From Candidatus Omnitrophota bacterium (GTDB taxonomy: Bacteria; Omnitrophota; Gorgyraeia; Zapsychrales; Fredricksoniimonadaceae), in assembly GCA_013287965.1 (NCBI GenBank), contig JABDCU010000003.1:4231-68230 (forward strand): a stretch of 64,000 nucleotides of DNA. Direction: 5' to 3'. Positions within the stretch are counted from its first letter, which is position 1; each line of letters opens with the position of its first letter. Below the pieces are notes generated by a model. That model saw only the letters and a list, made by a program, of their open reading frames with translations, did not search any database and was not told where the DNA came from. Below are positions 1-62,700 of this stretch, one piece after another. The translations under genes were made by a program, and so were the position numbers.

Positions 1-991
<991 letters not shown>

Positions 992-37675: not shown

Positions 37676-37790
37676 AGTGTTTCTCGTGTGATTCCACTGC
37701 TACTCATAGTAATCTTAATTAATTCATACATAAATTAGGGTGACGCACAACTTAATTCTAACTGGATTCCTACTTTCGCACGAATGACAA

Positions 37791-37847
37791 GCGAATCCCC
37801 TGCCGCACCAGAGAAAAACCACCGTTCGAATTCACCTGCAGGGCTGG
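37791..37847 (+). repeat. 57-nt conserved island element, copy 1
   Basis: GCGAATCCCCTGCCGCACCAGAGAAAAACCACCGTTCGAATTCACCTGCAGGGCTGG. Confidence 0.85.
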
Positions 37848-37855
37848 TGTAAAAA

Positions 37856-37894
37856 AGATTGCTTCGTCGACCTTCGGCCTCCTCGCAATGACAC
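37856..37894 (+). repeat. hairpin (REP-like) repeat; terminator-like on minus strand
   Basis: AGATTGCTTCGTCGACCTTCGGCCTCCTCGCAATGACAC preceded by A6 (T6 on minus strand). Confidence 0.8.
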
Positions 37895-40421: not shown

Positions 40422-40769
40422 TCAAAGCTTATTGTACTTTGTATGCTTACCTTTGGCCTTGTGTACGGGGTATTTTAGGGCGTTTTTCTTCATTTTATTC
40501 AGCATTGCCTTGGGGAGGTCGATTTTTAGATTGTCGGCTAATTCGAATAGATACATGGCTACGTCGGCTAATTCATCGGCGAGGTCTTCCTTATTGGCTT
40601 TGCCGTGCTCTTCGACTTCTTTTGGGGATTTCCATTGGAAATGTTCTAGGACTTCGCTGGCTTCCAGGACTAGCGAAAGGGCTACATCTTTATGATTGTG
40701 GAATTGTTTCCAGTCGCGGGCGTCGCGAAAGGCTTTGATCTTTGCGGTGAGCTGTTTTATTTCGGACAT
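40422..40769 (-). CDS. mazG: MazG-like nucleoside triphosphate pyrophosphohydrolase
   Basis: LVLEASEVLEHFQWK ... EELADVAMYLFELA; start set to ATG 40769 (matches the paralogous copy); TAGAAT -10 box ends 6 nt upstream (leaderless-like). Confidence 0.85.
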   Translation of the reverse strand: MSEIKQLTAKIKAFRDARDWKQFHNHKDVALSLVLEASEVLEHFQWKSPKEVEEHGKANKEDLADELADVAMYLFELADNLKIDLPKAMLNKMKKNALKYPVHKAKGKHTKYNKL

Positions 40770-40810
40770 TGCCACATTCTACTATTAACTAGATTTGAAA
40801 AAGGTTAAAA

Positions 40811-41844: not shown

Positions 41845-42013
41845 TGGTAGTTGTCCTTAGTATGCTGGCTTTTGGAACTAATGCTTGCTCTTTAGTTCTT
41901 TTTCATGGATCAAAAGTAGATTTTTGACACTTACGTTGGGCTGCTTTATCTTGTACATTGTACGATAAGTTTTACGAAAATAAAACAGGTTATTTAGAAC
42001 GGCTTTTCGCGAA

Positions 42014-42070
42014 GCGAACCCCCCGCCGCACCAGAGAAAAACCACCGTTGCGTTCATCTACAACGTCTGG
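42014..42070 (+). repeat. 57-nt conserved island element, copy 2
   Basis: GCGAACCCCCCGCCGCACCAGAGAAAAACCACCGTTGCGTTCATCTACAACGTCTGG. Confidence 0.85.
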
Positions 42071-42092
42071 TGTAAAAAACACAATATTCTGG

Positions 42093-42143: not shown

Positions 42144-42760
42144 CTACGGCCGGGACCAGGACCAGTAGCGTGGTTTGAACTTCTTGACCGCTGTCCCCTT
42201 CTTCTTATGTTGAGCTAATTGATCGATGAAAGACCAAAATTCCTTCTCTGTGAGTTTGGATTTCATCACAGACAGTAAGAAGCTTGTAAGTACTACCTTT
42301 TTAGGGTCATTCGGCTTTAAAAGATTCAAAACACAATACCATGGATCATGGCGGTCAAGACAATATTTGGAATGAGTTGAAAAAACCGGGTTCCCGCAGA
42401 TGATGCAACGGGTTGATCGTTTTTTGGGTGTCTTAAGGGGTGAAAAGTTTGATTTATTAGTCTGGAAGTAATAACCACCTTACTATTATCGCAGGGTATC
42501 CAATGGTCAAATTCCAAATACCACGGACTTTCGATTTCTTTCAGCTCTAGAGGTGTTTTGGTGTAGTAACATATATAACCATACTTTTTTATAAAATCCC
42601 AAATGGCGTTACGAGTTTTATTGGGAAAACGTCTTATTTTCATTCGATAATTGATATAGGCACAGGTGGGACAATATTTTGAGCCGTAATTTACCGGTTT
42701 TGTGCAGATGCAGCAGCTTGGGATAGGTTTTTGGAGAGTTAGATCCAAGTTTTTAGGCAT
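42144..42760 (-). pseudogene. decayed paralogue of the tandem zinc-ribbon/HNH-like gene
   Basis: 144-aa ORF = unit 1 truncated after VVITSRLIN. A third frame then reads CIICGNPVFSTHSKYC...HDPWYCVLNLLKPNDPKKVVLTS...LTEKEFW...PRYWS = unit 2 with internal deletion and DH replaced by NL. Confidence 0.7.
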
Positions 42761-42824
42761 AATTGAGGCATTATGTCAGAAAAATGGAAAATCGGCAAGA
42801 AGCTGGTATTGAGGGGCGCGCGAA

Positions 42825-42881
42825 GCGAAATCACTGGCGCGCCAGAGAAAAACCACCGTTGCGTTCATCTAAAAGGGCTGG
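42825..42881 (+). repeat. 57-nt conserved island element, copy 3
   Basis: GCGAAATCACTGGCGCGCCAGAGAAAAACCACCGTTGCGTTCATCTAAAAGGGCTGG. Confidence 0.85.
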
Positions 42882-42971
42882 CAGAAAAAACATATCGGTG
42901 TGAGCCATGGCTCTAAAGGATGGGGCCAGTGGGATATGGAGTTAGTGGGCATGGAAGGCTCCTTTAAGAAC

Positions 42972-42999
42972 TTGACAGGTTAAAGCTAAATGATATAAT
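42972..42999 (+). promoter_or_regulatory. near-consensus sigma70 promoter pointing at the tandem repeats
   Basis: TTGACA (42972-42977), 16-nt spacer, TGaTATAAT (TATAAT 42994-42999). Confidence 0.7.
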
Positions 43000-43006
43000 T
43001 TAAGTG

Positions 43007-43125
43007 AATCACGATGAGAGGACACCCAAAGGCTGGTAGCTTATGCCGCGGCGATGCCTCTCGATTTAAATTAATCACGATGAGAGGGTAACCAAAGGGG
43101 TTGGTCCCGCGGCGATGCCCTCTCG
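43007..43125 (+). ncRNA. candidate small RNA: two tandem ~60-nt structured repeats (66-nt period)
   Basis: AATCACGATGAGAGG...GCGATGCCTCTCG (43007-43066) and AATCACGATGAGAGGG...GCGATGCCCTCTCG (43073-43125); stem grows by a compensating G/C pair; strand inferred from the promoter. Confidence 0.45.
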
Positions 43126-43127
43126 CT

Positions 43128-43607
43128 TCACCTCTCGTATTCAAACTTTTCCCTTAATTCATTTATAAAAGACGTATCGACTCCAAATTTCTTCAAAAGA
43201 GTTGAATATTTATAACGATTGGGAATTAATAATCTTTCCAGCTTACCTTTCTTTTCTAAATATTCAATCAGGCAATAAAAATCCCCATCCCCTGTAATAA
43301 TCACTGCTTTGTCATAATTGTTCCACTCAATCATAGTATGAAGCACAAGTTCTGCGTCAACATTTCCTTTGACCTTCCCTTCTTTAAGATCAAGCGTGGG
43401 CTTAAACACTAAAATATAGCCCTGTTGTTGCAAGATCTTATACATGGTTTGTTGTGTAATTATATATCCTATAAATAGGAATGCTTTTGTGATCCCGTAT
43501 TTATCTTTGAGATATTGACGAAAATTTTTGTAATCAAGTCGCCAACCTTGGTCTCTGATAGATAGATTTAGATTCTGGCTATCGATGAAGGCGTAATTAT
43601 TGGGCAC
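43128..43607 (-). CDS. NYN-domain (LabA/DUF88-like, PIN-related) putative ribonuclease
   Basis: YAFIDSQNLNLS, GNVDAELVLH, VIITGDGDFYCLIEYL; GTG start. Confidence 0.8.
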   Translation of the reverse strand: MPNNYAFIDSQNLNLSIRDQGWRLDYKNFRQYLKDKYGITKAFLFIGYIITQQTMYKILQQQGYILVFKPTLDLKEGKVKGNVDAELVLHTMIEWNNYDKAVIITGDGDFYCLIEYLEKKGKLERLLIPNRYKYSTLLKKFGVDTSFINELREKFEYER

Positions 43608-43608
43608 A

Positions 43609-43639
43609 GTTCCCCCTCTTTGGGTTTGCGCGGGGGAAC
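43609..43639 (-). promoter_or_regulatory. SD-sequestering hairpin in the NYN leader
   Basis: mRNA GUUCCCCC-gcgcaaacccaaaga-GGGGGAAC, 1 nt before GTG; right arm contains the SD. Confidence 0.55.
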
Positions 43640-43726
43640 GCTTGGTTTAGATTAAGATTAGTTGATCCGGTTTGGGAGAAACCGGTTGTTATATTAAAAT
43701 CCTCGGGGAAAGGATTGAACAAAAGG

Positions 43727-43755
43727 ATTATACTTTACTTTGCTCAGTAGGACAA
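43727..43755 (-). promoter_or_regulatory. promoter of the NYN gene
   Basis: Minus strand TTGTCC (43755-43750), 17 nt, TATAAT (43732-43727). Confidence 0.6.
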
Positions 43756-43789
43756 GCGAAACCACCGCTGCGTTCACCCCAAGGGTTGG
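43756..43789 (+). repeat. 57-nt element, copy 4 (internally deleted form)
   Basis: GCGAAACCACCG|CTGCGTTCACCCCAAGGGTTGG: lacks the 22 nt between the two AACCACCG direct repeats. Confidence 0.7.
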
Positions 43790-44709
43790 CCCAAAATGGA
43801 TTTGCGCTTGCGCGGGAAATGGCTGGGCCCGTACGGCCGGGACCAGTAGCGGAGTTTGCATTTGCGTACCGGTGTCCCCTTCCTAAAATGATTGGCGAAC
43901 TGGTGGATGAGATACCAGAATTCTTTTTCTGTCAGGTCTTGCTTCATGGCGTTGACCATCCGTGAGGTGATCACGAGCCTCTTGGGATTAGTCGGCGTCC
44001 AGTGATCGAAAGTCAAATACCAGGGACTGTGTTCATCAAATAAATCCAGCGGCATGCCGGTGTAATAGCAGATATAGCCGTACTTGCGTATATAGTTCCA
44101 AATGGCTTTTCTGGCCTTCAGGGGAAAGCGTTCATTGATCATGCGCTTGGCGATCGTTGAACACTCCGGGCAGTATTTATGCCATCTATTGGGAGTCGGC
44201 TGCCGACAGCAACCAGCACAACACCGTTGCCCTTTTACAGGTTTTATTAATCTGTACCAATGTTTCAGGTGCTTCTTTTTGACCTTCAGATGTTTCCTTC
44301 TGTGATCGTCCAGCGCTATCACATAATACCGGAATTCTTTCTGTGTCATGTCCTGCTTCATGTCGTTGACGATCGCGGCACAGATGACGATCTTGATGGG
44401 ATCTCCCGGGGTCCAATGATCAAAATCAAGATACCAGGGGCTTGTATCATCGTTTAATTCTAGAGCAACTTTTATGTAATAGTCTCTATAGTATTCAGCG
44501 TGGATGTAGTCCCGTACGCCTTGCTGGGCCTTTGCAGGGAATTTCTTTCTATGCATCCGGCGGGTTGTTTTGAGACAGTCACGGCAATAGATGGACCAGT
44601 TAGAAAAAACCTTTTTGCGGCCGCAGAGGCAACAGGTTTTTAAAGGTTTTCTGGATATGTGGTGGCTTTTGTAGGTAGATACGGCCATATTCAGGCTTTT
44701 GATGTTCAT
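43774..44709 (-). CDS. tandem double zinc-ribbon/HNH-like nuclease-domain protein
   Basis: Two ~150-aa units, each Cx2C...Cx2C ribbon + (C)YYT..SPWYL(D/T)FDHWTP...V(N)xMKQD(L/M)T(E/Q)KEF, fitting the HNH DH...N...K core. Confidence 0.55.
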   Translation of the reverse strand: MNIKSLNMAVSTYKSHHISRKPLKTCCLCGRKKVFSNWSIYCRDCLKTTRRMHRKKFPAKAQQGVRDYIHAEYYRDYYIKVALELNDDTSPWYLDFDHWTPGDPIKIVICAAIVNDMKQDMTQKEFRYYVIALDDHRRKHLKVKKKHLKHWYRLIKPVKGQRCCAGCCRQPTPNRWHKYCPECSTIAKRMINERFPLKARKAIWNYIRKYGYICYYTGMPLDLFDEHSPWYLTFDHWTPTNPKRLVITSRMVNAMKQDLTEKEFWYLIHQFANHFRKGTPVRKCKLRYWSRPYGPSHFPRKRKSILGQPLG

Positions 44710-44762: not shown

Positions 44763-44838
44763 GCTTTTTTAGGTAGCAGCCAAGAAACCAACCATTGTTT
44801 TTGCAGATCAGACAGGGGTTTTTCACCCTTTTCGCGGA

Positions 44839-44895
44839 GCGAAACCACCGCCGCACCAGAGAAAAACCACCGTTGAATTCATCTAAAAGGGCTGG
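44839..44895 (+). repeat. 57-nt conserved island element, copy 5
   Basis: GCGAAACCACCGCCGCACCAGAGAAAAACCACCGTTGAATTCATCTAAAAGGGCTGG. Confidence 0.85.
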
Positions 44896-44903
44896 TAGCA
44901 AAA

Positions 44904-44937
44904 AGATTGCTTCGGGGCTACGCCCCTCGCAATGACA
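44904..44937 (+). repeat. hairpin (REP-like) repeat
   Basis: AGATTGCTTC-GGGGC-TAC-GCCCC-TCGCAATGACA, abuts the stop codon of the mazG remnant. Confidence 0.8.
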
Positions 44938-45146
44938 CTAGAGCTTGTTATATTTTGTATGTCTGCCTTTGGCTTTATGTACGGGGTATTTTAGGGCGTT
45001 TTTCTTCATTTTATTCAGCATTGCCTTGGAAAGGTAAATAAAAGGACTAGCGAAAGGGCTACATCTTTATGATTGTGGAATTGTTTCCAGTCGCGGGCGT
45101 CGTGAAAGACTTTGATCTTTGCGGTGAGCTGCTTTATTTCGGGCAT
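44938..45146 (-). pseudogene. mazG paralogue with ~145-nt internal deletion
   Basis: Both ends align with 40422-40769 (MPEIKQLTAKIKVFHDARDWKQFHNHKDVALSLV ... / ... KKNALKYPVHKAKGRHTKYNKL); 209 nt, out of frame. Confidence 0.8.
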
Positions 45147-45351: not shown

Positions 45352-46185
45352 TTACTTCTTTGCACTTCGAGCGATAGTTTTCCCTTCTGAACTTAGCCGG
45401 CGTTGTAATTTCTTGATATCTTCTTCAGCAGGTAACTCTTCCGGTTTAATACCACTTTTGCCTAAAAGGGCTCGAACATCCTTGTTATTTTTGACATGTT
45501 CATCTGTAATGACTGATTCGCCCTTTAAATTGTTCTTTTTGGAATTAAAACTGGTTATTTCAGTTGCCAGATCTTTGGCTTTAATAGTTATCGTTGGTAA
45601 AAAGTCAGCTATAGGACGCTTTTCCGGAATTTTGAGCTTTTTCTTCATTTCAAGGGTTGTATGTCCTCCAAAGAGCGCTTCATCACCTTTACTGCGCAAT
45701 CTGGCAAATCCTTGGCCATCTACTCCCCTCTCATAAAGAACCCCTGATAATTCATGCTCCGTTTGAGATAATTTTTGGCGGGCGTGTACTCTTTCTACAA
45801 GCGCTATGCGCTCCTCCAAGATCTCTTGCTTACGCGTCTGAATGGCAAAATAGCTTTGGGCAAAGGCAATTTGTTCTTTGCGTGGGTCGCCGTTTTGGGC
45901 GATTAGATAGCAGGCGTAACGGGTTAACATTATATCATCGACTTTTCTTTGAGCTCCTTTAGCTAAATCGATCATTTTGTTGACGTCAACAAAATGATCG
46001 GCAATGTTTTGTTTCGACTTAAAACATGCTGTTTTAGCCTTATCAATCACCAAAACAAAATTACGCCATTCGGCGTAATCTAAGAGCGCCTGTAGGTCTC
46101 GCGCCATCCAATATTCAACTCCATTATGAGAATGCGAAGACTCTTCAAACGTTTTGTTTAATTTAACGATGATTTCAGTTTTCAT
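45352..46185 (-). CDS. dinD: DNA damage-inducible protein D family
   Basis: [51 protein letters not shown]. Confidence 0.8.
45970..45999. repeat. perfect 30-bp palindrome inside dinD
   Basis: GATCATTTTGTTGACGTCAACAAAATGATC (codes for [11 protein letters not shown]). Confidence 0.9.
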
Positions 46186-46534: not shown

Positions 46535-46553
46535 CTACTAAGGAGAATGACAA

Positions 46554-46610
46554 GCGAAACCACCGCCGCACCAGAGAAAAACCACCGTTGCGTTCATCTA
46601 CAAGGGCTGG
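46554..46610 (+). repeat. 57-nt conserved island element, copy 6
   Basis: GCGAAACCACCGCCGCACCAGAGAAAAACCACCGTTGCGTTCATCTACAAGGGCTGG. Confidence 0.85.
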
Positions 46611-46620
46611 AATAATTTGT

Positions 46621-50958: not shown

Positions 50959-51002
50959 AAAATCGGAACACATTACCTTTTTCAATAAGTCAATGTGTCC
51001 CG
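50957..51002 (-). terminator. terminator of the transposase gene
   Basis: Minus strand CGGGACACATT-17 nt-AATGTGTTCCG (11 bp, one G-U) + ATTTTTT; left arm overlaps last codons. Confidence 0.7.
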
Positions 51003-51667
51003 GTTTTTTTAGGACGTCCGTTAGGTTTTGGTTTTAAAACTTCTGCCTTGATGCCAAGCTTCCCTGCTAATGATCCAAGAAAACAGTCTTCTCCTAGGGG
51101 CAAACCGTTCAAATTTCGCTTTCTAATTTCCTTTAATATGCCTTCTGCTTCCGGCTTAATCAAATACTCTTTCCAATCCCCCACTAGTGGTACAGCAGGA
51201 CAATAAGAAAGCAGAGAATCTTCCACTGCGTTTACATGGTTTCGAGCGCTTGACCATAAATAATCCCATGCTTTTTCAACCATTCCTGCCCGGACGGGAT
51301 TGTTCTCAACATAACGCAATGTTCTAATAAGATAAGCTTCATCCATGACAAAGCTAATAAACCTTCCTTGCCATAAGTAGCCACGCCAGTCATACCGCGT
51401 ATTGATATGACATGTAAAGCGCCGATTTGTTTCTGCCACTGCTTTAGCCAATCCTTCTTGTGTTTTTGGAACCAAAATTAAATGGACATGATTGTCCATT
51501 AAACAATATGCCCAGACTTCGACATTGTATTTATCGACCTGTTTTTTGAGCAGTTTAAGATAAAGGATCTTGTCACCGGGATAAAAGAAGACCTGCTGAC
51601 GACGGTTTCCACGTTGGATTACATGATGCGGTTGTCCAGGAATTACGATTCGATGCTTTCTTGACAT
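50990..51667 (-). CDS. Y1 (HUH) transposase, REP-associated tyrosine transposase / IS200-like family
   Basis: HHVIQRGN, HUH motif DNHVHLIL, catalytic-Tyr helix LRYVENNPVRAGMV. Confidence 0.8.
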   Translation of the reverse strand: MSRKHRIVIPGQPHHVIQRGNRRQQVFFYPGDKILYLKLLKKQVDKYNVEVWAYCLMDNHVHLILVPKTQEGLAKAVAETNRRFTCHINTRYDWRGYLWQGRFISFVMDEAYLIRTLRYVENNPVRAGMVEKAWDYLWSSARNHVNAVEDSLLSYCPAVPLVGDWKEYLIKPEAEGILKEIRKRNLNGLPLGEDCFLGSLAGKLGIKAEVLKPKPNGRPKKTGTH

Positions 51668-51670
51668 ACT

Positions 51671-51692
51671 CCCCCCTTTTGTTTTTAGGGGG
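51671..51692 (-). promoter_or_regulatory. SD-sequestering hairpin in the transposase leader
   Basis: mRNA CCCCC-uaaaaacaaaa-GGGGGG-AGU-AUG. Confidence 0.5.
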
Positions 51693-51753
51693 ATTAGTGG
51701 TTAATTTTAAAAATTAATTTTATGAAATCCTGGGGGAAGGATTGATTAGAATA

Positions 51754-51782
51754 AGATTAGCGCTTTTAGGGGTTTGGTGCAA
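51754..51782 (-). promoter_or_regulatory. conserved promoter module, copy P3
   Basis: Minus strand AAAAAGCTTGCAC, 17 nt incl. CTAAAAGCGC, TAATCT. Confidence 0.5.
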
Positions 51783-51801
51783 GCTTTTTAATGGGGGAAC
51801 G

Positions 51802-51832
51802 AAAAACTGGGACATAAAAGTCAATGTGTCCC
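51802..51832 (-). terminator. terminator after the TPR gene
   Basis: Minus strand GGGACA-12 nt-TGTCCC then AGTTTTT. Confidence 0.5.
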
Positions 51833-51837
51833 GGTTT

Positions 51838-52383
51838 TTAATCCCGGTACTTTTTGTCCTTAAGCATATTGACGATGCGGGGATTTACGGTGCCTCCTAA
51901 TTTCTGTATTTTAATGATGTCTTTCCAAACTTTATCATAATCATTTAATTTAAAATAAGCGCTCATGCGGCTGATATAGGTCCTGACATTATCAGGGTCT
52001 AATTGAATGGACTTGCTGTAGTCAGCAATGGCTTTGGCATATTTTTTCTTATAAAAATAAGCAATGCCGCGCACGTGATAGGCCGCGGCATATTTAGGGT
52101 CAATTTCGATGGCCTTGTCAAGATCAGCAATGGCCAGTTTATACCTTCTCATTTTGATGTAAATAAAGCCCCTGTTGTAATAGGCGTGTGAATAACCAGG
52201 GTCAGCCTGGATGGCTTTAGTGTAATTAAGAATGGCGTCTTTATATTTTGCCTGCCTGCCGCTGACATTACCCAGATGCAGGTATTGCGCTGCTGTTAAC
52301 GGGTGGGCAGCCGGCGGCGGGGTTTGTCCGTATGCCGCCATCGGGGCGGTCAACAGCATCAGGATAAAATAATATTTTTTCAT
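51838..52383 (-). CDS. exported TPR-repeat protein
   Basis: Start set to ATG 52383 (AAAGGAG SD); signal peptide MKKYYFILMLLTAPMAAYG; 4-5 TPR units (AILNYTKAIQADPGYSHAYYNRG...). Confidence 0.75.
   Translation of the reverse strand: MKKYYFILMLLTAPMAAYGQTPPPAAHPLTAAQYLHLGNVSGRQAKYKDAILNYTKAIQADPGYSHAYYNRGFIYIKMRRYKLAIADLDKAIEIDPKYAAAYHVRGIAYFYKKKYAKAIADYSKSIQLDPDNVRTYISRMSAYFKLNDYDKVWKDIIKIQKLGGTVNPRIVNMLKDKKYRD
51840..51863 (+). repeat. 24-nt direct repeat, right copy (true 3' end of TPR gene)
   Basis: Encodes KDKKYRD-stop on the minus strand. Confidence 0.9.
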
Positions 52384-52407
52384 CGCTTGGCTCCTTTGTT
52401 TCAAAAT

Positions 52408-52430
52408 AAGTCAATGTGTCCCGGTTTTTT
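52408..52430 (+). repeat. terminator half-site element abutting the yoeB stop
   Basis: AAGTCAATGTGTCCCGGTTTTTT, no partner arm. Confidence 0.7.
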
Positions 52431-53707: not shown

Positions 53708-53722
53708 CTGTCCCGGTTTTTT
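53708..53722 (+). repeat. degenerate terminator half-site abutting the giant-gene stop
   Basis: CTGTCCCGGTTTTTT. Confidence 0.45.
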
Positions 53723-56700
53723 AGCTCGTGGCGCCTTTGATGACGGCGAATTTGATCACGATGGCCTCTCCCAAGTTGCCGCCGCTCTGATTCGTGACGG
53801 TAATGACGAAGGAACCTGAGGCTTCGGTGTTCGCGTCAGTCGTGTAAGACCCTATGGACCCGCCTGAATCATGCTGGGTATAAACACAGTCTGCCGATGC
53901 CACCGCGGTATCGTTAACGGTAAAACTGACTGATGCCCCGTGGTTTAGCGTCGCATTATTCATGGTAATGGTGCCGGAAGGCGCATTGATGGTCACGGCT
54001 GTTGATTTGTTGGTCAATTGGGTCACGGTCGCGCCCGCCCCCGTTGTATACCCAATGCCCGTAGTGCCGGATGAAAGGATGCCTCCATTGACCTGAAGCG
54101 CCGCGCCCGGCACTGTTGTGCCGATTCCCACATTACCGCCATTTGGATTGATGACCAGAGGATAATGCGCGGTCTGGTCCGTGCTGTTGGTCATCTGGGC
54201 ATAGCCATAATTGCCGCCGTTGGTGCCAAAAAGCATCATGGCCCCGCTGTTTGGCTGCTCAGTCAGACGCAGTGTGCCACCGCCTGCCGACCCGGAAGTG
54301 GCAATGGCACCCGTGGTGCCGCTGACATTAAGCGGCGCGCTGGGCGTCGTGGTGCCGATGCCCACGTTGCTGCCGTTAAAATAAGAATTATTTGCTGCTG
54401 TTGATGAAAGTTGCAAGCCGACACTTCCGGCGCTATTATCCAGATTTACGGTCGCGTTGCCGGAGGCAAGGGTGCTCACAGTAAAAGCCACATTGCCTGT
54501 TGTATGGGTGATCAAGAAATCAAGGGACCCGTTGCTGGCCCCCGCGACCTGTAATTTTCCGGATGCCGGGTTCGCCCCGACGCCCACATTGCCGCCCATG
54601 ACCGTTAATGCCCCGCCCGGCGCCCAGGTGCCTATGCCCACGTTGCCGTTGGTCACAACGAGGCCGCCTTGCGGAGTGCTGGTGCCGATGCCTACATTGC
54701 CGTTTGGAAAATCGACATTGGTGATAGTGGTCGTACTTCGGTTGACCAACAGCCAGTTGGTGGCAATAGAACCTGCATTGTTGAGTGCCCTCATCGTAAA
54801 TTGACTGCTGCTGTTGCCGCCGGCATCCCAAACCCGATTGTCAGCTGAGGCCCCTTGTGCGTCAAATGTCACGCTCGCATTGCTCGCGGCGAGATAAATG
54901 TTGCCCGAGTTTGCCCCGATTATATCGGGACTTCCGTATCCGCTAAGGATCGCGTTTGCCGTTCCTGCCCTCACCTGTCCGTTGACATCCAATTTATAAG
55001 CTGGCACCCAGGTGCCGATGCCCACGTTGCCGCTTTGGGTGATGACTATCCTGTCCGCGGAATTGGACCTGTCGTAAATTTCAAAATTGTCGGCGGTTGT
55101 GTTGACATTCTGCCCTACCTGCCATGTCCGCGAGGTGTTTGCAAACCACAGGTCAGCACCGTTACCGGTGCCGCCGCTTGATTCAATTTTTATCCGGGAA
55201 TTGCTGCCGGCCCCATAGATATCCAAGGGCGCGGTCGGCCCCACCGAGCCGATGCCCACGTTGCCGGCGACCATCCTCATCCACTCCTGCGCGGCCCCGG
55301 CCGGATAACCGCCAAACGCCAAACTGATATTGTCGTTTGACGGGCGGATGGCCTCTATGTACCCACCGTAGTCTGTCACTGAGAAATTGGACCGTGGCGA
55401 AAACACCAGACGGACGGATTGGTTGCTGCCTGTGTTGGCATTTTGGAGATTTGCGGCAACATAGGTCGAGGCGCTTGAACCCCGCACATCCAGCGTTGCC
55501 AACGGCGCGGCTATCCCGATACCGACGTTGCCGTTGGTCACGGCGAGGCCGCCTTGCGGGGTAGCTGTGCCGATGCCCACGTTGCCATTGCTGTCCACCC
55601 TCACCCTTTCACTGCCATTGGTCCAAATACGCGCGAAGTTGCCTGTATCAACAAAGACACCATTAGTAATAGAACTTCCCGCGGTATCTTTGAAGCCTAA
55701 AGTTGAAGTGTCTGAATATAAATATCCGGGAACGGCAGAGGCATCACTGCCTTGAAAAGAAAGCACGGTCCTGGCCGTGTTGCTCCTGACCGCGAGCGCC
55801 ACTGCCGGCGTCCAGGTCCCTATACCCACGTTGCCGTTGGTCACCACGAACCCCCCTTGCGGGGTGCGTGTGCCGATGCCGACGTTGCCCGAGGGACCAT
55901 CGAAATTAGCTATAGGCAAATTTTTACCATTATCAATCTCAAAACTTCTAAAATGTGTCGTTCCATTATTGTAACCAGTATAGTTAAGATACCCTGTATC
56001 ATCCCCGTTATGCCCATAATTAAAATTCAGGGCGTTGGCATTCGATGTATAAATCCCGTAACCTCCTATCACGATATCATTGACTAAAAGACCTATACCA
56101 TTTGCCACCTGTGGAACAACAGCAAGAGCGCTGCTGCCCGGCGCCCAGGTGCCGATACCAACGTTTCCGCTGGTCACGACAAAGGCTCCTTGCGGGGAGC
56201 TTGTTCCGACGCCGACATTGGTGCCGGGGGTGTTGTAGATATTAAAGCCGCTCCAGTTCCAGCCGCCACCAGCGAGATTGGGTTGCCAAGTGGCATTCCC
56301 GTTATTGTCCGAGGTCAGCACATAGCCGTTGCCCGGTGAGTCGGTCATTGTGAAGTCGGTTGTCCGCGTGGTGCCTTGTACATCAAGCCTCTGGCCCGGC
56401 GCGGTCGAGCTGATACCCACGTTGCCGGATTTTATTGTCAACCTATGCGCCCCACCCGTTGTGTCATAAATGGAAAACGCACCCGCACCCGGACCATTAC
56501 CGCTGCCGGTCGAATTAAGACTATATGACGCGCCGCCTGTATCTGTGTTAATCAACGTAACACTGGCCCCATTATTGGCGCCACTGACGCTGCGTACAAT
56601 AAGACCGGTGTTATAGGCTGCTTGACCTGCGATATCCAGCAATCCGCCCGGCGCCCAGGTGCCGATGCCTACGTTGCCGTTGTCAATGATGAAGCCGCCT

Positions 56701-59700
56701 TGCGGGGTGTACGTACCAATACCAACATTACCGTTTGTGTCAAGATACATTCTTGTTGTACCCGCCGTAATAGGATTGCCCCCTTGTGCGTTTGATTGCT
56801 GGAAAGCGATGTCACCAATGTTATGTTGATCAGTTGCAATGCCCCAATTTCTATAAGTTGACGTAGCTTTTGTAGTGTTAAGAGTCAAAGCGGCGCCAGG
56901 ATTGGCACCTGTATCGGTTATTGCAAGAATAGTATCACTACTTGCATCACCTCCGCTAACAACATCAAGCGGATTACTCGGTGCCCAGGTGCCGATACCC
57001 ACATTGCCGTTGGTCACCACAAATCCGCCGCCTTGCGGGGTGGTGGTGCCAACACCCACGTTGCCGCCAGTCGTCATATACATGGCGGTATTCCCATTAG
57101 GCTGAAAAACCAAATCAGCGCCATTGCTGGTGCGGACAGCAGCGCTGGTCGAGGTCAGACCTTCCAATATAATGTTGGCCTGACCGGCGAAATTGCCGGC
57201 AGAAAGATCCCCCCTGACCTCAAGGGTGTGGGACGGCGCTGTCCATGTACCGATGCCCACGTTACCGTTGGTCACGGTGAAGGCGGCCTGCGGTATGAAG
57301 GTGCCGATGCCAACATTACCGTTGGTGTCAATCAAAATACCCGTGGAAGATACCGAATTATTAGAGGCAAGCCATAAATCATTCCCTGAGCCCGCCCTAA
57401 AAATGGTAGATGTGTTGACCGGCAAAGATCCCCACGTCCACAGGCCTTCGTTGGCCGTGGGACCAATATTAATAGTGTCCCGAAAGAGGGATTGGCCATT
57501 AACGTCCAGGATCTTTCCAGGTGTCCAGGTGCCGATGCCCACGTTGCCGACCCTGTTTATGCTCATGGCAGCGGCAGGCACACCGCTGTTGTATGCCTGG
57601 AACTGAAAGCCGGTGCTTTCCTTGGTCCCTGGAACATACACCAGATCAATAGCATCCCCGGTGACAATGCCGCCTGTAAAATACTCATCAACATAATTCT
57701 CTCCGGGCCTGTCAAGCCGGAACTCACTGACCACATGGAGGTTTTGCTGGGGAGTGATGGTGCCGATGCCTATGTTGCCGTTGTCGAAGATCGCTCCGTT
57801 GCCTATTGTTGTGGCGCTGGTGGCTTTGGGCACATAGCCCGTCGTCAATCCGCTGATGGAACCGCTGAGGCCGGTCAAATGCGAGCCGTCGCCGTAATAG
57901 GAACCGCTGACCCGCGCGTCGCCCGTGATGTCCAGCACCTTGCCCGGCGTCACGGACCCGATGCCTACGTTACCACCGTTGGGATTAAAAACAAGCGGAT
58001 AGACAGCTGACAGATCAATCCAATTGCTATTCTGTAACCAGACACCATAAGGAGAAGCCGTATAAGAACCTATATACAGGCTGTTTCCATTAGGAGTTAC
58101 AAATGATGCTGTTCCATTGGGCACGGTCCCTGATGTAGCCGGAGAATTGGAAGTTCCCTGGACCTCAAATTTTAATCGCGGCGCCCAGGTGCCGATGCCA
58201 ACGTTGCCGTTGGTCACGGTGAGGCCGCCTTGTGGGGTGCTGGTGCCCACACCGACGTTGCCGGTAAAGTAACTGTTACCTGAACCGCTAAATGATCCTG
58301 TCAGCGCTGAGATCGGCGCATCACCGGAATTATCCCCTAACCTTACTTGCAGGGTTGTACCGCTTCGGACCAATCCGGGATAAGCATTCGTCGCGCCGCC
58401 AATATCGATTATCAGTCCGGCATTAAGATACAGCCTATTATTGGTTTGCATAATAACGTCCCCGAAACCAGAATCCCCAAAAGCGATATTGTTGGCACTG
58501 ACTGCAATGATAGATTCGTTGGCATTTTCCGCATAGGTGTGGGCATTGAGCGTAAATGCATTGCTTACACGCAGGTCACCGGCAGTCGCCACGCTCGTGC
58601 CAACGCCGATATTGCCTTGCACCAGCAGACCATTTGTCGGGGCGGCGGTTAATCCTGCATAGGTGGCTCCGATCGCCATGCTGCCATTGACATCCAGCTT
58701 ATTTACCGGCGCCGTGGTGCCGATGCCGACGTTGCCGCTTTGTAATATTTGCATTGCAGCTCCTACAGTTGCAGGCAAAAATTCTATCCCGGAAGTCCAG
58801 CCGCCGGATGAGCCAACTTGTAATAATGACGAGCTAACCCCTGTAATTTCATACCAATTATTGCCGCCTATAAGTCCATTGTTTCCGTCTAATTTTATAT
58901 CTCCGTTCACATCTAATTTTGACGTTGGTCCCACCGAGCCGATGCCTACGTTGCCGCCGTTAAGGATGGTAACTTCAGCACTGGAATGGCCGAATTGAAG
59001 CGGATATGTGCCTGCGGCACCGATTATTGTTGAATAGGGCGAATCGCCATTAATAAAGCTGGCTGGAGTGCTTCCTTCTATTCCAAAAAACGCGGAACCT
59101 CCTGTATTGTCAAGCCTGTAACGCGCCCGGTTTGTACCTGTTGTGGATAAAAGGTCTATTGCCCCTATAGTGCCTACTACATCAAGTTGCGATCCGGTTG
59201 ACACCCATGTGCCGATGCCCACAAGGCCGTTGGTCACGACAAAGGCGGCCTGCGGGGTCGTGGTGCCTATACCCACATTGCCGCCGGTGTCAAACATGGA
59301 GCCGTTGCCTATTGTTGTAGCACCGGTGGCTTTGGGCACATACCCCGATGTCAGTCCACTGACCGATCCGGCGGGCCATGACGAATTGCAAACATGGCCC
59401 AGGCATATGGAGCCGGAGCCGACGTCCAAGGTGCCCCCCGGAGACGTGGATCCGATACCCACAGAACCGGTAGCGAAATTGTACTGGCTTGCACTAAATT
59501 CTACGGGTTCAAAGGTGGTGTTCGCATCGTTGAGAATGAAGACATCCGTTGTCGGCGAGCCAAGCTCAGACCCGCCACCTACCGCAAATTCCTCATTTGT
59601 GCCGCCGCGCACGTTGAATTTGGCGATCGGATTTATCGTCCCGATGCCCACACTGCCGCCGTCTGATGCCAAAAAGATATTCCTGTAAGCGACACCCTGG

Positions 59701-62700
59701 CTGACCGCGTTAATGCTAAAATAATTACCTGTTGTGTTATAGGAAGTGTATGCTCCGCTTCCGCTGGGAGTATGTACCGGACCCCAGTCTATTTCCGGAT
59801 TAGAAGCACCATCCACTTCCAATTTTGCCCCCGGCGCCCATGTGCCGATGCCCACGTTGCCGTTAGTTACGATGAGGCCGCCCTGCGGGGTCGTGGTGCC
59901 GATGCCAATGTTGCCATTGGTTTGTATAGTCAATCTGTTATTACCCGCGGAAGTAGGGTCTGCGTTGCTGGTAATCTTGAATTTCTCGCCATCCTGGTTG
60001 TCAAGTCCTGACGACCAGCTTTGCTGTCCGGGGCTGGTGTATACTGTCGCGGCATAACCCGCGCCGCCGCCCCCTGTTTCGAGCTGTAAGGCGCTATAAG
60101 CTGACGATGTGTTGTTGAGATTATGTAATAATATGATCATTCCTGTTGAATCTGATTTGTCCATTTCAATATCATACCCTGGCGCCCAGGTGCCGATGCC
60201 GACGTTGCCGTTCATCACTATGAAACCGGCTTGCGGGGTGGTGGTGCCGATGCCGATGTTGCCGCCGGTGTCAAAGATGGAGCCGTTGCCTATAGTTGTA
60301 GCACCGGTGGCTTTGGGCACATATCCCGTTGTCAGGCCACTGATGGAACCGCTGATGCCGGTCAAATGCGAGCCGTCGCCGTAATAGGAGCCGCTGACCC
60401 GCTCCGAGCCTTGGATGTCGAGATTTTGACCCGGCGTTAAGGAATTAATGCCGACGTTGCCCGCGGAATCAATCATCATTCTGTAAGCAGATCTGGCCAA
60501 ATCATAAAATGCCAAGCCATGACTGCCTGCAGCCCCATCGGCCTGGATATACCAACTTTCACCGGTGTCTTTCACATTAATCCCGGCACCGGTCGTATTT
60601 GTTGACATGAATCTTCCATAAACATTCCCTGTGCCCGACACATCAAGCAGTTTCCCCGGAACGAAGGTCCCGATGCCCACGTTGCCGGTGCTAAAACTGT
60701 AAACTTTTCCGGATGGAACAGTGAAAGCTATATTATTCGTAAGTGCATTGATATTAAAATCGTTATTGCTTCCAGTAAGAGAACCGATAGAAACTCCGCT
60801 TCTGGTAAAATCTTCAAATGATGCGCCGGTTTGAGTCAGAGACAGCAAAGATGACGGCAATGTAGTGCCTATGCCCACGTTGCCGCTTCCATCGATTGTT
60901 TGTCTTACCGCGCCGGTTGTGAGGAATTGCACAGGCACGTTGTCTTTATCACCAAAATAAATAGCGCTGTTTGCTATCGCCGTACCGGAAAAAGGGTTGG
61001 CTCCGGCAGAGCTGGCAGCTCCCCAATAAGCGTCAGTTGCAGATGTTCCAATATGAAAATAACCGCCATTTGTCGCTGTTGATGAATTACCAAATATTTG
61101 ACCTGAACCAACTGTTGATACTAATCCACCGCTAAGCGTAATCCCTCCAGCCACCTCTAATTTATTAACAGGGCCCACCGTGCCGATGCCCACGTTGCCG
61201 GCGCTGTCAATAGTCATTCGGACGGCATTATTAGTAGCCACCTGTAACGGATATGCACTGGCTTGAGTTCCAATAATACTCGCGTAAGGTGAAGTCCCAG
61301 TGACCAAAACGCCCCCAGCACTGCTTTCTACCCCCAAGACCAATGTTCCACCGGTGTTTGTTTCCTGTATCCCGACACGATTGGTCCCTGTTGTTGATCT
61401 TAAGGCAAAATCTCCTTCCGATGCTCGTATGTCTACAGGATATTGTGTCACCCAGGTGCCGATACCCACATTACCGTTAGTCACGACAAAGGCGGCCTGC
61501 GGGGTCGTCGTCCCAACACCCACGTTGCCTTTAAAATAAGCCCCACCGCTGCTGCCGTCAATGCTCGCCAGTACGGAGTTTTGCGCCCCGTTTTGCACCA
61601 GCAAGCCGTAATTATTGGTGCCGAAGTTTGGCTGGCCAAGAATAAGCAGTGAGGCAGCATTAGTTACCGATCCTCCGCCGCTCTTACTGCCTGAGACGCC
61701 GTTGGCGGCAATGGTCGCGAAGTTGGTAGCCGAGCCGCCGGTCGTATTGATGCTTGGATAAGCGTAGATACCAAAAGAATTGGTCAGGGCCGTGGAAGCG
61801 GTAAGAGTATTGGACACGGTGAGGCCACCGGTATTGTTGTTCGTCGTCCCTTCGATGCTAATCCCAGCGCCGCCGAAGATGGTCAATTGTGAGTCAGGCG
61901 TTGTCGTGCCGATGCCCACGTTGCCGCCGTTGGGATTTAACAATAAAGCATAATTGGTATTCAAAGCACGCATGTCCGTACTTTGCAGCCACGTCGCATT
62001 GGTCCCCGCTGAATCCCCTATGTCTAAAACGACGTCACCAGAGGCCCTGGAATCCCTGAATCTTGCAACACCTCCTGTCTGTGCTGTTCCTGAGTTGGCA
62101 GGTAATCCATAGGCAGCGCCCAAAATTTCCAATTTCATTACCGGCGTCGAGGTGCTGATGCCGACGTTGGTGCCGTCGTCGTATACAATTGAATTGGTCA
62201 GTGTCGTGGCGCTGGCGGCTTTGACGTGGTAATTAGTTGTCAGGCCGCTGACAGTGCCGCTGATGCCGGTCAGGTGTGAGCCGTCGCCGTAGAATGCACC
62301 GCCGTTGCTGGCGCGGATATCCCCATTCACGTCTAAGGCCTTGCCAGGATTGATTGTCGCAATGCCCACATTGCCGCCGCTGCCTAAAATGGTAAGCATA
62401 GTGCTGGTGCTATTGTCTATTGTCAGTTTACCGCCGCCGGCACCGGCATTATTATTCGTGCTGTTGATGTTCCATGGGAGCCCTCCCGTGCCGGAATTGT
62501 TGAGAGTCAGGGAAGAGTTGTTTCCGGTGGTCGTGACGCGAAGATTGGTGGCATTGCCGGTACCATTGATATCGAGCTGATAGGAAGGGATTGTCGAGCC
62601 GATGCCCACGTTACCGGCGGTATCAAAAGTCATCCTGGCCGTGCTGTTCGTGAACAGTTGAAGTGGCGTGCTGTTCCAACTTCCGACGGCAGACGCATAC

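Follow-up and report, generated by a model that had tools for sequence, protein, structure and literature searches.

The window, by which is meant the whole 64-kb stretch of DNA analysed, contains a compact module made up of a minus-strand gene for an NYN-domain nuclease and, converging on its 3′ end from the plus strand, two units of a small structured RNA behind a promoter of their own (Table 1). The module belongs to an island of small cassettes, among which are MazG-like and HicB genes, a DNA methylase and a Bro-N protein matching the PADLOC candidate PDC-S13. It is bounded on its low-coordinate side by a 77-nt intergenic repeat and on the other side by a partial copy at 43746-43785, which overlaps the NYN promoter; full copies of this repeat family lie at 37780, 42003, 42814, 44828 and 46543. 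The 77-nt repeat also occurs at a second locus (L269), beside an orphan RNA copy and an NYN remnant. An identity of the repeats as integron attC sites was rejected because, by inspection, they carry tandem direct motifs of the form AACCACCG(Y)(Y)GC and not the inverted R''/R' pattern. No integrase match was obtained among the part of the window's ORFs that was scanned against Pfam.

Table 1. Features of the NYN/RNA module and its low-coordinate boundary (positions are those of the window).
Feature	Position	Strand	Evidence
77-nt intergenic repeat, low-coordinate module boundary	42814-42890	.	Repeat family D1/D4
Small-RNA promoter, sigma-70 type	42972-42999	+	-35 TTGACA 42972-42977; 16-nt spacer; TGaTATAAT with -10 TATAAT 42994-42999 and TG ahead of it; 12/12
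Small-RNA unit 1, diverged copy	43007-43067	+	R1 51.9 bits, E 1.2e-9; 5-nt loop insertion
Small-RNA unit 2, canonical copy	43073-43128 (R1 match)	+	R1 60 bits, E 2e-11
NYN-domain nuclease gene, 159 aa, GTG start	43128-43607	-	Pfam PF01936, E 7e-14
NYN mRNA leader, three hairpins, ~113 nt	43608-43726	-	Fold z -2.5
NYN promoter	43727-43755	-	TTGTCC, 17 nt, TATAAT; 10/12

The NYN identity of the protein, originally proposed from its sequence, is confirmed by a match to Pfam PF01936 of 53 bits (cutoff 24.2; E 6.9e-14) that spans residues 7-122. The acidic active-site set (D9, N12, D84, D107 and D109) is intact in the window, and each of these residues is either invariant or conserved at a level of 90% or more. 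As modelled by AlphaFold2 (pLDDT 84.7), the product has a PIN-like NYN fold, which matches 2qip (TM 0.73) and the NYN domain of MARF1 (TM 0.64). The former is the closest solved structure and has no assigned function. With PADLOC 2.0, the only hit is to PDLC01154, a generic NYN model that is longer than the protein; it is weak (E 8e-6) and covers just part of the profile (positions 151-292 of 310).

For the NYN mRNA, a preliminary description of this DNA had proposed a promoter of its own and a leader whose last hairpin buries the Shine-Dalgarno sequence, and both are found again. The hairpin (43639-43609; GUUCCCCC...GGGGGAAC) covers a GAGGGGG Shine-Dalgarno sequence located 1 nt ahead of the GTG start. 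At L002, L001, L269, L271, L272 and L274, a C-rich stretch that pairs with the NYN translation start has been kept in one of two structural forms; it was not found outside the window's own clade. The buried ribosome-binding site therefore holds for the window and its clade, and conservation of the leader across the whole family was rejected. It is proposed that in this clade the leader hairpin may further restrain NYN translation.

On the plus strand, the near-perfect promoter that had been described is the top promoter-like site within 42600-44000 by promoter scoring, and it is almost identical to the corresponding promoters of L272, L001, L269 and L002. Transcription is predicted to start at ~43005-43007, and the first RNA unit begins 7 bases past the -10 box. 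The two stem-closed repeats with a 66-nt period are both recognized by the covariance model R1, which was built from 64 aligned RNA copies, mostly from other genomes, with the two window units among the 64 seeds; only these two units score above noise in the whole window. Their starts are spaced 66 nt apart, both open with AAUCACGAUGA, and they share 86% identity across the first 35 nt. Unit 1 has the 5′ tail AAUCACGAU and the closing stem GAGAGG/CCUCUC; its apical loop has grown to 11 nt and lacks the family UUNNGU loop. Unit 2 has the same tail and the stem GAGAGGG/CCCUCUC; CC/GG pairs lie further in, and its apical hairpin is GGG-GUUGGU-CCC. As claimed, it ends (at 43125) 2 nt short of the NYN stop codon, which reads TCA on the plus strand (43128-43130).

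Neither unit is followed by a U-tract, and a terminator scan of 43007-43130 found no G+C-rich hairpin with a U-tract. The minus strand of the window folds slightly more stably than the plus strand, owing to mutual pairing of units 1 and 2. A small-peptide gene within the repeats was considered and rejected. In agreement with the earlier statement that no ORF here is preceded by a Shine-Dalgarno sequence, the sole plus-strand frame comprises 25 codons from an AUG at 43014 and has none, and this AUG is missing from 21 of 90 distinct members of the RNA family. Comparison with the Rfam 15 covariance models, which took in abiF, ToxI, PtaRNA1, ribozymes and riboswitches, gave no match at gathering score in the 64 kb and none at E up to 10 in 42600-44000.

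A covariance-model search for the repeat beside NYN genes elsewhere, which the preliminary description had suggested, reveals that the arrangement is widespread. Eighty loci encoding NYN relatives were taken, with one genome per species, and the DNA downstream of each stop codon was read; an R1 scan finds the RNA at 66 of them. This recurrence of the same RNA beside NYN genes indicates that the arrangement in the window is more than chance. At all 66 loci, the matches lie on the strand opposite NYN, directly past the NYN stop codon, which the 3′ end of the RNA abuts (gap mode -1) or crosses to overlap the coding region by up to 55 nt (gaps -55 to +24). By its position, the RNA is complementary over its full length to the predicted 3′ UTR of NYN or to the 3′ end of its coding region. 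This geometry, always convergent and 3′-abutting or overlapping, hints that the cis arrangement matters, a counterpoint to a binder acting in trans. Read on the strand opposite NYN, nearly every locus has a TTGACA/TATAAT promoter, followed after 5-8 nt by the tail AUCACGAUGA, then by a stem that covaries, an interior that is conserved and finally a U-tract, which enters the complement of the NYN stop codon.

The hosts carry at least seven phylum-level labels and include Omnitrophota, Planctomycetota (Pirellulales, Scalindua and Sedimentisphaerales), Spirochaetota, many Patescibacteria lineages, Gammaproteobacteria, Binatia and Ignavibacteriae. The pair is frequent in reduced Patescibacteria genomes, which makes a housekeeping RNA-processing role conceivable. 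NYN relatives form 143 clusters at 50% identity (E up to 1e-30); at 90% identity the number of clusters exceeds 8000. They span Patescibacteria, Omnitrophota, Planctomycetota and others. Between phyla, the proteins are 55-84% identical; this is unusually conserved for a toxin, and recent horizontal transfer would explain it. No close NYN homologue was found in PLSDB plasmids or in isolated-phage databases, an absence that is probably why the module has been overlooked.

The NYN loci that have no R1 match belong to three groups. At some, the contig stops at the NYN gene; at others (L050, L054, L069 and L077) the RNA is present in a visibly divergent version; and the rest belong to a distant, longer NYN subfamily (43-50% identity) in which a co-directional gene follows directly. 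An intact NYN gene of the subfamily proper (at least about 52% identity) without any RNA occurs at one or two loci at most. The conserved small RNA is almost certainly a specific partner of the NYN gene.

The RNA is ~55-60 nt long. A conserved single-stranded 5′ tail leads into one long irregular hairpin, whose basal stem covaries and is topped by a purine-rich internal loop and, at the apex, the hairpin GGG-UUNNGU-CCC. Across the alignment, 91% of cells pair, compared with 79% after shuffling and 51-68% after sliding, and 77 cells are changed on both sides where 18 are expected. Compensatory changes occur in all six basal-stem pairs, and none of 500 shuffles matched the observed values; an R1-based alignment leaves this picture unchanged. 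In several lineages the inner helices fuse into a continuous Watson-Crick helix (for example, CAUAAGG/CCUUAUG in L010), which indicates that the RNA is a single long irregular hairpin. In the 64-copy alignment, which crosses phyla, tail positions either do not vary or are conserved in at least 90% of copies.

Three further possibilities were considered for this RNA. A pseudoknot between ACGA of the tail and UCGU of the loop is compatible with 84% of cells and was rejected, as it shows essentially no covariation and its 1-nt linker makes it sterically implausible within one molecule; the same pairing might still take place between separate RNA molecules. Pairing in trans with the NYN ribosome-binding region was rejected for want of any signal: complementarity of the RNA to the region where NYN translation starts does not exceed expectation (mean z +0.1 to +0.3). 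A likeness of GAGAGGAC to the sarcin-ricin loop was dismissed because this segment is a covarying stem.

The element is oriented by its promoter, its 3′ end and its base pairs. A promoter of at least 9/12 lies upstream of 55 of the 64 family copies, compared with 4% of random positions, and one of at least 10/12 upstream of 46, compared with 0.5%; its -10 box ends 5-8 nt ahead of the conserved AUCACGA. Most family members are followed by a U-tract on the RNA strand, and on that strand G-U pairs outnumber A-C pairs by 45 to 20. Together, the promoter, the U-tract and the excess of G-U over A-C place the functional strand opposite NYN and rule out a 3′ UTR element of the NYN strand. These comparisons support the view that the plus-strand element is an independently transcribed structured RNA. 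Because a U-tract follows the hairpin in most genomes, the hairpin doubles as the RNA's own terminator.

The window departs from its family in several respects. Two full tandem units occur only in the window and at L001; one unit is present at about 60 of the 66 loci and in the closest organism (L272), whose neighbouring 305-aa protein is 92% identical to the 311-aa protein of the window. The tandem pair is therefore not a family trait, and the likeness to ToxIN that had been drawn from the tandem repeats does not hold. Unit 1 is degenerate, with its larger loop and lower score, NYN translation initiation is sequestered in this clade, and the window units lack the terminator found elsewhere in the family. 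Without a U-tract, antisense read-through is likely, and transcription in the window probably runs on into the NYN gene.

RNA copies were also sought independently of NYN. Metagenomes scanned with an RNA-only pattern, followed by confirmation with R1, yielded 43 copies; in 35 of them the sequence extends for 500 nt or more on the expected NYN side. Among these 35, the neighbour is an NYN gene in 25 cases, an NYN remnant in 3 and uncertain in 1; the remaining 6 are orphans. RNA copies adjoining NYN remnants are those of L218 and L239 and the second copy in L269. About 80% of the copies hence adjoin NYN or a remnant of it. Five orphans (L173, L227, L170, L181 and L230) keep both promoter and terminator. 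Since the RNA-first patterns used on viral and metagenomic sequences demanded the tail and apical motifs, the conservation of these motifs in orphans is partly built in.

Viral contigs carry the RNA as well. The scan gave six R1-confirmed copies on five distinct contigs, none of which has an NYN gene. These RNA-only contigs encode phage proteins, namely terminase, portal and major head proteins (L084), a portal protein (L103), and RecT with an exonuclease (L081). In at least one phage (L112/L135), the RNA motif is part of a 5′ leader, in which the tail of the motif pairs with the ribosome-binding site of the gene that follows. A single-sequence NYN protein search of the viral contigs returned no match; an alignment-based protein search found the complete NYN/RNA module on two further viral contigs. 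From these surveys, NYN appears to be lost more often than the RNA, as the RNA without NYN is fairly common and an intact NYN of the subfamily without the RNA is nearly absent. Such asymmetric decay, in which the RNA is kept and NYN is lost, is as expected of a toxin and its antidote.

The reading that we hold, with moderate confidence, is that the pair is a two-part toxin/neutralizer or defence module in which the RNA serves as antitoxin, probably via protein binding. The RNA-controlled toxin of the preliminary description remains the best fit to the comparative data. Such a module would comprise two genes, one for a predicted metal-dependent NYN-fold nuclease and one for the ~55-60-nt structured RNA, which would have a strong promoter of its own on the other strand and be transcribed toward the NYN 3′ end. 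Made in excess, the RNA would hold the nuclease harmless, mainly through direct binding of the protein by the conserved tail and apical hairpin, as in type III systems. Its complementarity to the NYN 3′ end could add an antisense effect or transcriptional interference of the type I kind. Should the RNA run out, for instance because phage infection or loss of the element has stopped transcription, the nuclease would be set free. NYN toxicity, neutralization by the RNA, direct RNA-protein binding and a role in defence are what we infer from comparative sequence data. Direct binding is favoured because unpaired nucleotides have been preserved between phyla, a constraint that antisense action in cis does not impose, and because stand-alone RNA copies persist far from NYN genes.

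Among known systems, the pair would by analogy work most like type III toxin-antitoxin systems or AbiF/RCd22. As in ToxIN, CptIN and TenpIN (PMC5086642; PMC8860590), an endonuclease protein has a small structured non-coding RNA as its sole partner, in a mobile module with links to defence islands. The RNA-only phage copies recall the pseudo-ToxI carried by phage PhiTE (PMC3475682). The protein, however, has an NYN/PIN-like fold in place of the ToxN/AbiQ fold, and the RNA is one unit with its own promoter and (usually) terminator, located downstream and convergent with NYN, whereas ToxI-type antitoxins form an upstream, co-directional array of 36-nt-type repeats that is processed by the toxin. 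None of the three ToxIN features tested (toxin fold, repeat array, and position and orientation) is present. In Clostridioides difficile, the abiF RNA motif beside Abi_2 genes (RCd22) is a protein-binding antitoxin that acts in cis and in trans (PMC12373285). Here, too, a conserved structured RNA lies beside a nuclease-type gene; the logic of discovery is the same and, by analogy, the function is probably the same. AbiF/RCd22 differs in that the Abi_2 protein is HEPN-like and its RNA occupies the upstream leader and does not converge on the 3′ end, and the RNA described here has no Rfam match.

Two other systems are instructive in their differences. VapC toxins of type II have a PIN domain, and their antitoxin is a protein, VapB, encoded upstream in the operon (review PMC7180214). 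Like the NYN protein, VapC has the PIN-like fold of metal-dependent ribonucleases and belongs to a small, mobile module of two genes; the NYN partner is an RNA, and there is no conserved partner protein. AvcID illustrates that an RNA antitoxin can act on a protein without the ToxN fold and provide phage defence when host transcription stops (PMC10511110), yet its toxin is a deoxycytidylate deaminase, and its RNA and gene layout are unrelated.

A different possibility is that the two genes form a non-toxic ribonucleoprotein or processing pair, in which the RNA would be a substrate, cofactor or guide of NYN in RNA metabolism or regulation. The NYN protein might, for instance, trim the 5′ tail at the tail/stem junction, like NYN-domain RNase P acting on pre-tRNA minihelices. 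RNase P substrates include a minihelix with a single-stranded leader, and the RNA family, with its single-stranded leader, stacked helix of ~12-14 bp and small loop, resembles one. This account would suit a protein that is highly conserved and frequent in small Patescibacteria genomes, and the characterized bacterial NYN enzymes are RNA processors (PMC11346440). A housekeeping function is harder to reconcile with the patchy distribution of the pair, which is found in variable neighbourhoods, islands and cassette arrays, and with the presence of the module on viral contigs, and no further conserved neighbour gene was seen at the loci compared. Decay of NYN with retention of the RNA, together with the RNA-only phages, is also hard to accommodate. 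The two-part composition, variable neighbourhoods, toxin-antitoxin and defence islands, asymmetric decay and RNA-only phage copies thus argue for a toxin/antidote or defence module, and we consider a processing pair unlikely, though by no means far-fetched.

Convergent antitoxin RNAs that overlap the 3′ end of their target are known from type I systems such as txpA/RatA and bsrG/SR4 of Bacillus subtilis. The preliminary description had pointed to this likeness in the convergent arrangement, and the RNA is convergent at all R1 matches, its 3′ end abutting or overlapping the NYN 3′ end. As in those systems, the small RNA is, by its position, complementary to the predicted 3′ end of the candidate toxin transcript and, in the window's clade, the ribosome-binding site is hidden by mRNA structure. 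In its pure form, this explanation holds that the RNA pairs with the NYN 3′ end or interferes convergently and so lowers NYN expression, with no protein binding. Read-through into NYN from the terminatorless units of the window would serve such a mechanism, and at several loci a co-directional downstream gene implies that NYN-strand transcription passes through the RNA gene. Pairing between strands of the same DNA would, however, leave the primary sequence free to vary, whereas different phyla share the sequence of the tail and apical hairpin as well as the structure, neither of which antisense action needs. Intact orphans with their own promoter exist far from NYN, where they could act only in trans, and some are on phages; moreover, no surplus complementarity to the NYN translation start is seen. 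The candidate toxin, a 159-aa predicted soluble enzyme, is also unlike the small (under about 60 aa) hydrophobic membrane peptides of type I systems. Antisense action as the whole explanation is therefore distinctly unlikely.

That the hairpins merely terminate transcription intrinsically, or insulate, where a mobile gene ends, without RNA function, a case that had been named as refuting the toxin reading if the tandem units lacked conservation elsewhere, is hardly credible: the basal stem and U-tract of most loci do have the form of an intrinsic terminator, but there is a dedicated promoter at a fixed upstream distance, termination has no need of the conserved 5′ tail and apical loop, the hairpin on the NYN strand is followed by AUCGUGAU and not by a U-tract, the window units have no U-tract, and stand-alone copies occur on phages.

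A search of Rfam and of the full-text literature found no description of an NYN nuclease with an RNA partner, and the NYN/RNA gene pair, which is real and strongly conserved, appears to be undescribed. If the RNA neutralizes NYN, as the toxin/antitoxin reading would have it, this would be, as far as we could find, the first RNA-antitoxin system with an NYN/PIN-like toxin. Its layout, a single hairpin RNA with its own promoter and terminator that converges on the protein gene, lies between type I and type III. The pair adds a well-supported structured RNA family to the catalogue and gives a candidate function for many proteins annotated as "NYN domain-containing". The phage-borne RNA copies are natural examples of what could be anti-defence decoys.

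A bolder version of the antitoxin reading, to which we give an outside chance, would make the pair a widespread abortive-infection system of uncultured phyla whose RNA antitoxin is a decoy mimicking the cellular target of the nuclease. The apical GGG-UUNNGU-CCC-G matches helix 37 of 16S rRNA (GGGUUAAGUCCCG) at 11 of 13 positions, including family-invariant ones. Phages might counter such a system by carrying the decoy RNA alone. The L112/L135 leader may, on the same view, be a nuclease-sensing switch.

Small minus-strand genes in the window are set apart, in the manner of cassette boundaries, by copies of a 77-nt intergenic repeat that bounds the NYN module (the NYN-domain nuclease gene and its convergent structured RNA) on both sides. 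The window copies include the stretches ...GCGAAGCGAAACCACCGCCGCACCAGAGAAAAACCACCGTTGCGTTCATCTA...GGGCTGGT... and carry tandem, direct AACCACCGYYGC motifs, in contrast to the inverted repeats of integron attC sites, and no integrase match was found among the window ORFs scanned. The repeat is also present in two of the other loci compared, L002 and L269. In L269, it stands immediately next to a NYN remnant and an additional RNA copy, an orphan (one without an intact NYN gene) that lies 1 kb from an intact module. Downstream of the orphan, about 30 nt from the 3' end of NYN precede the repeat; the NYN gene at this site appears to have been lost by recombination at the 77-nt repeat. These observations suggest that the repeat is a recombination site.

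Coordinates of the repeats, genes and RNA features discussed in the text
Feature	Location	Strand	Remarks
77-nt intergenic repeat	window 37780-37856, 42003-42079, 42814-42890, 44828-44904, 46543-46619		partial copy 43746-43785
MazG-like gene	window 40422-40775		Pfam PF12643
MazG-like gene, broken second copy	window 44942-45146		
Paralogous Cys-rich protein genes	window 42144-42329, 42326-42760, 43774-44709	-	three genes
Apical hairpin of the RNA	window 43097-43109; A1 (alignment of family copies) columns 30-47		GGG-UUNNGU-CCC-G, family consensus
Bro-N domain protein	window 45352-46185	-	PADLOC PDC-S13, full length, E 6e-115
IS200-like Y1 transposase gene and TPR gene	window 50984-52430		transposase gene 50990-51667
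26-nt repeat	window 50984, 51815, 52405		
Single open reading frame	window 53721-63974	-	3417 aa
Orphan RNA copy	L269 3950-4006	-	full promoter present
Second RNA tail, AAUCACGA(C/U)GG	L051 3490-3555; L053 3490-3556	-	
RNA motif embedded in leader	L135 405-545 (same as L112)		viral contig IMGVR_UViG_3300033150_002791

Cassettes within the island also seem to duplicate and decay, as a broken second MazG-like copy points to: the two copies lie 4.5 kb apart and share two segments of 89% and 96% identity, and the frame of the second is interrupted. Paralogous Cys-rich protein genes occur on both sides of the NYN module, and all three share the motif ...SPWYL(E/D)FDHW(I/T)P...; the 311-aa protein is an internal duplication. 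These paralogues have no match in Pfam, NCBIfam or PADLOC, and an orthologue in L272 is 92% identical and likewise lies directly upstream of NYN. In L051 and L053, a second tail without a recognisable hairpin stands 3' of a complete RNA unit. This tail is possibly the remnant of a tandem copy that has decayed; if so, it would hint at recurrent duplication of the RNA unit.

The Bro-N protein of the window matches a PADLOC candidate defence family, and in L269, L271 and L272 the NYN module likewise has Bro-N, KilA-N and ORF6N genes as neighbours. Farther along, the 26-nt repeat AATAAGTCAATGTGTCCCGGTTTTTT brackets the Y1 transposase gene and the TPR gene each, a layout similar to that of REP/RAYT elements. 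A single open reading frame takes up the final 10 kb of the window.

The phage contig L135 carries the RNA motif inside a leader, where the upstream CUCCUCCUUAUCACGA pairs with the downstream UCGUGAUAAGGAGGAG, directly 5' of an AUG. The resulting 19-bp helix sequesters both the 5' tail of the motif and the ribosome-binding site (-60.6 kcal/mol, z -6.6), and the leader could be a switch responding to the NYN nuclease. The apical hairpin of the RNA family resembles helix 37 of 16S rRNA (GGGUUAAGUCCCG; 16S sequence confirmed). Its commonest form, GGGUUUCGUCCCG, is identical to helix 37 at 11 of 13 positions, including those that are invariant in the family; by rough estimate, a match this good would arise by chance somewhere in rRNA with a probability of about 0.05. 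Target mimicry might underlie this likeness, which we take as a lead only and not as evidence.
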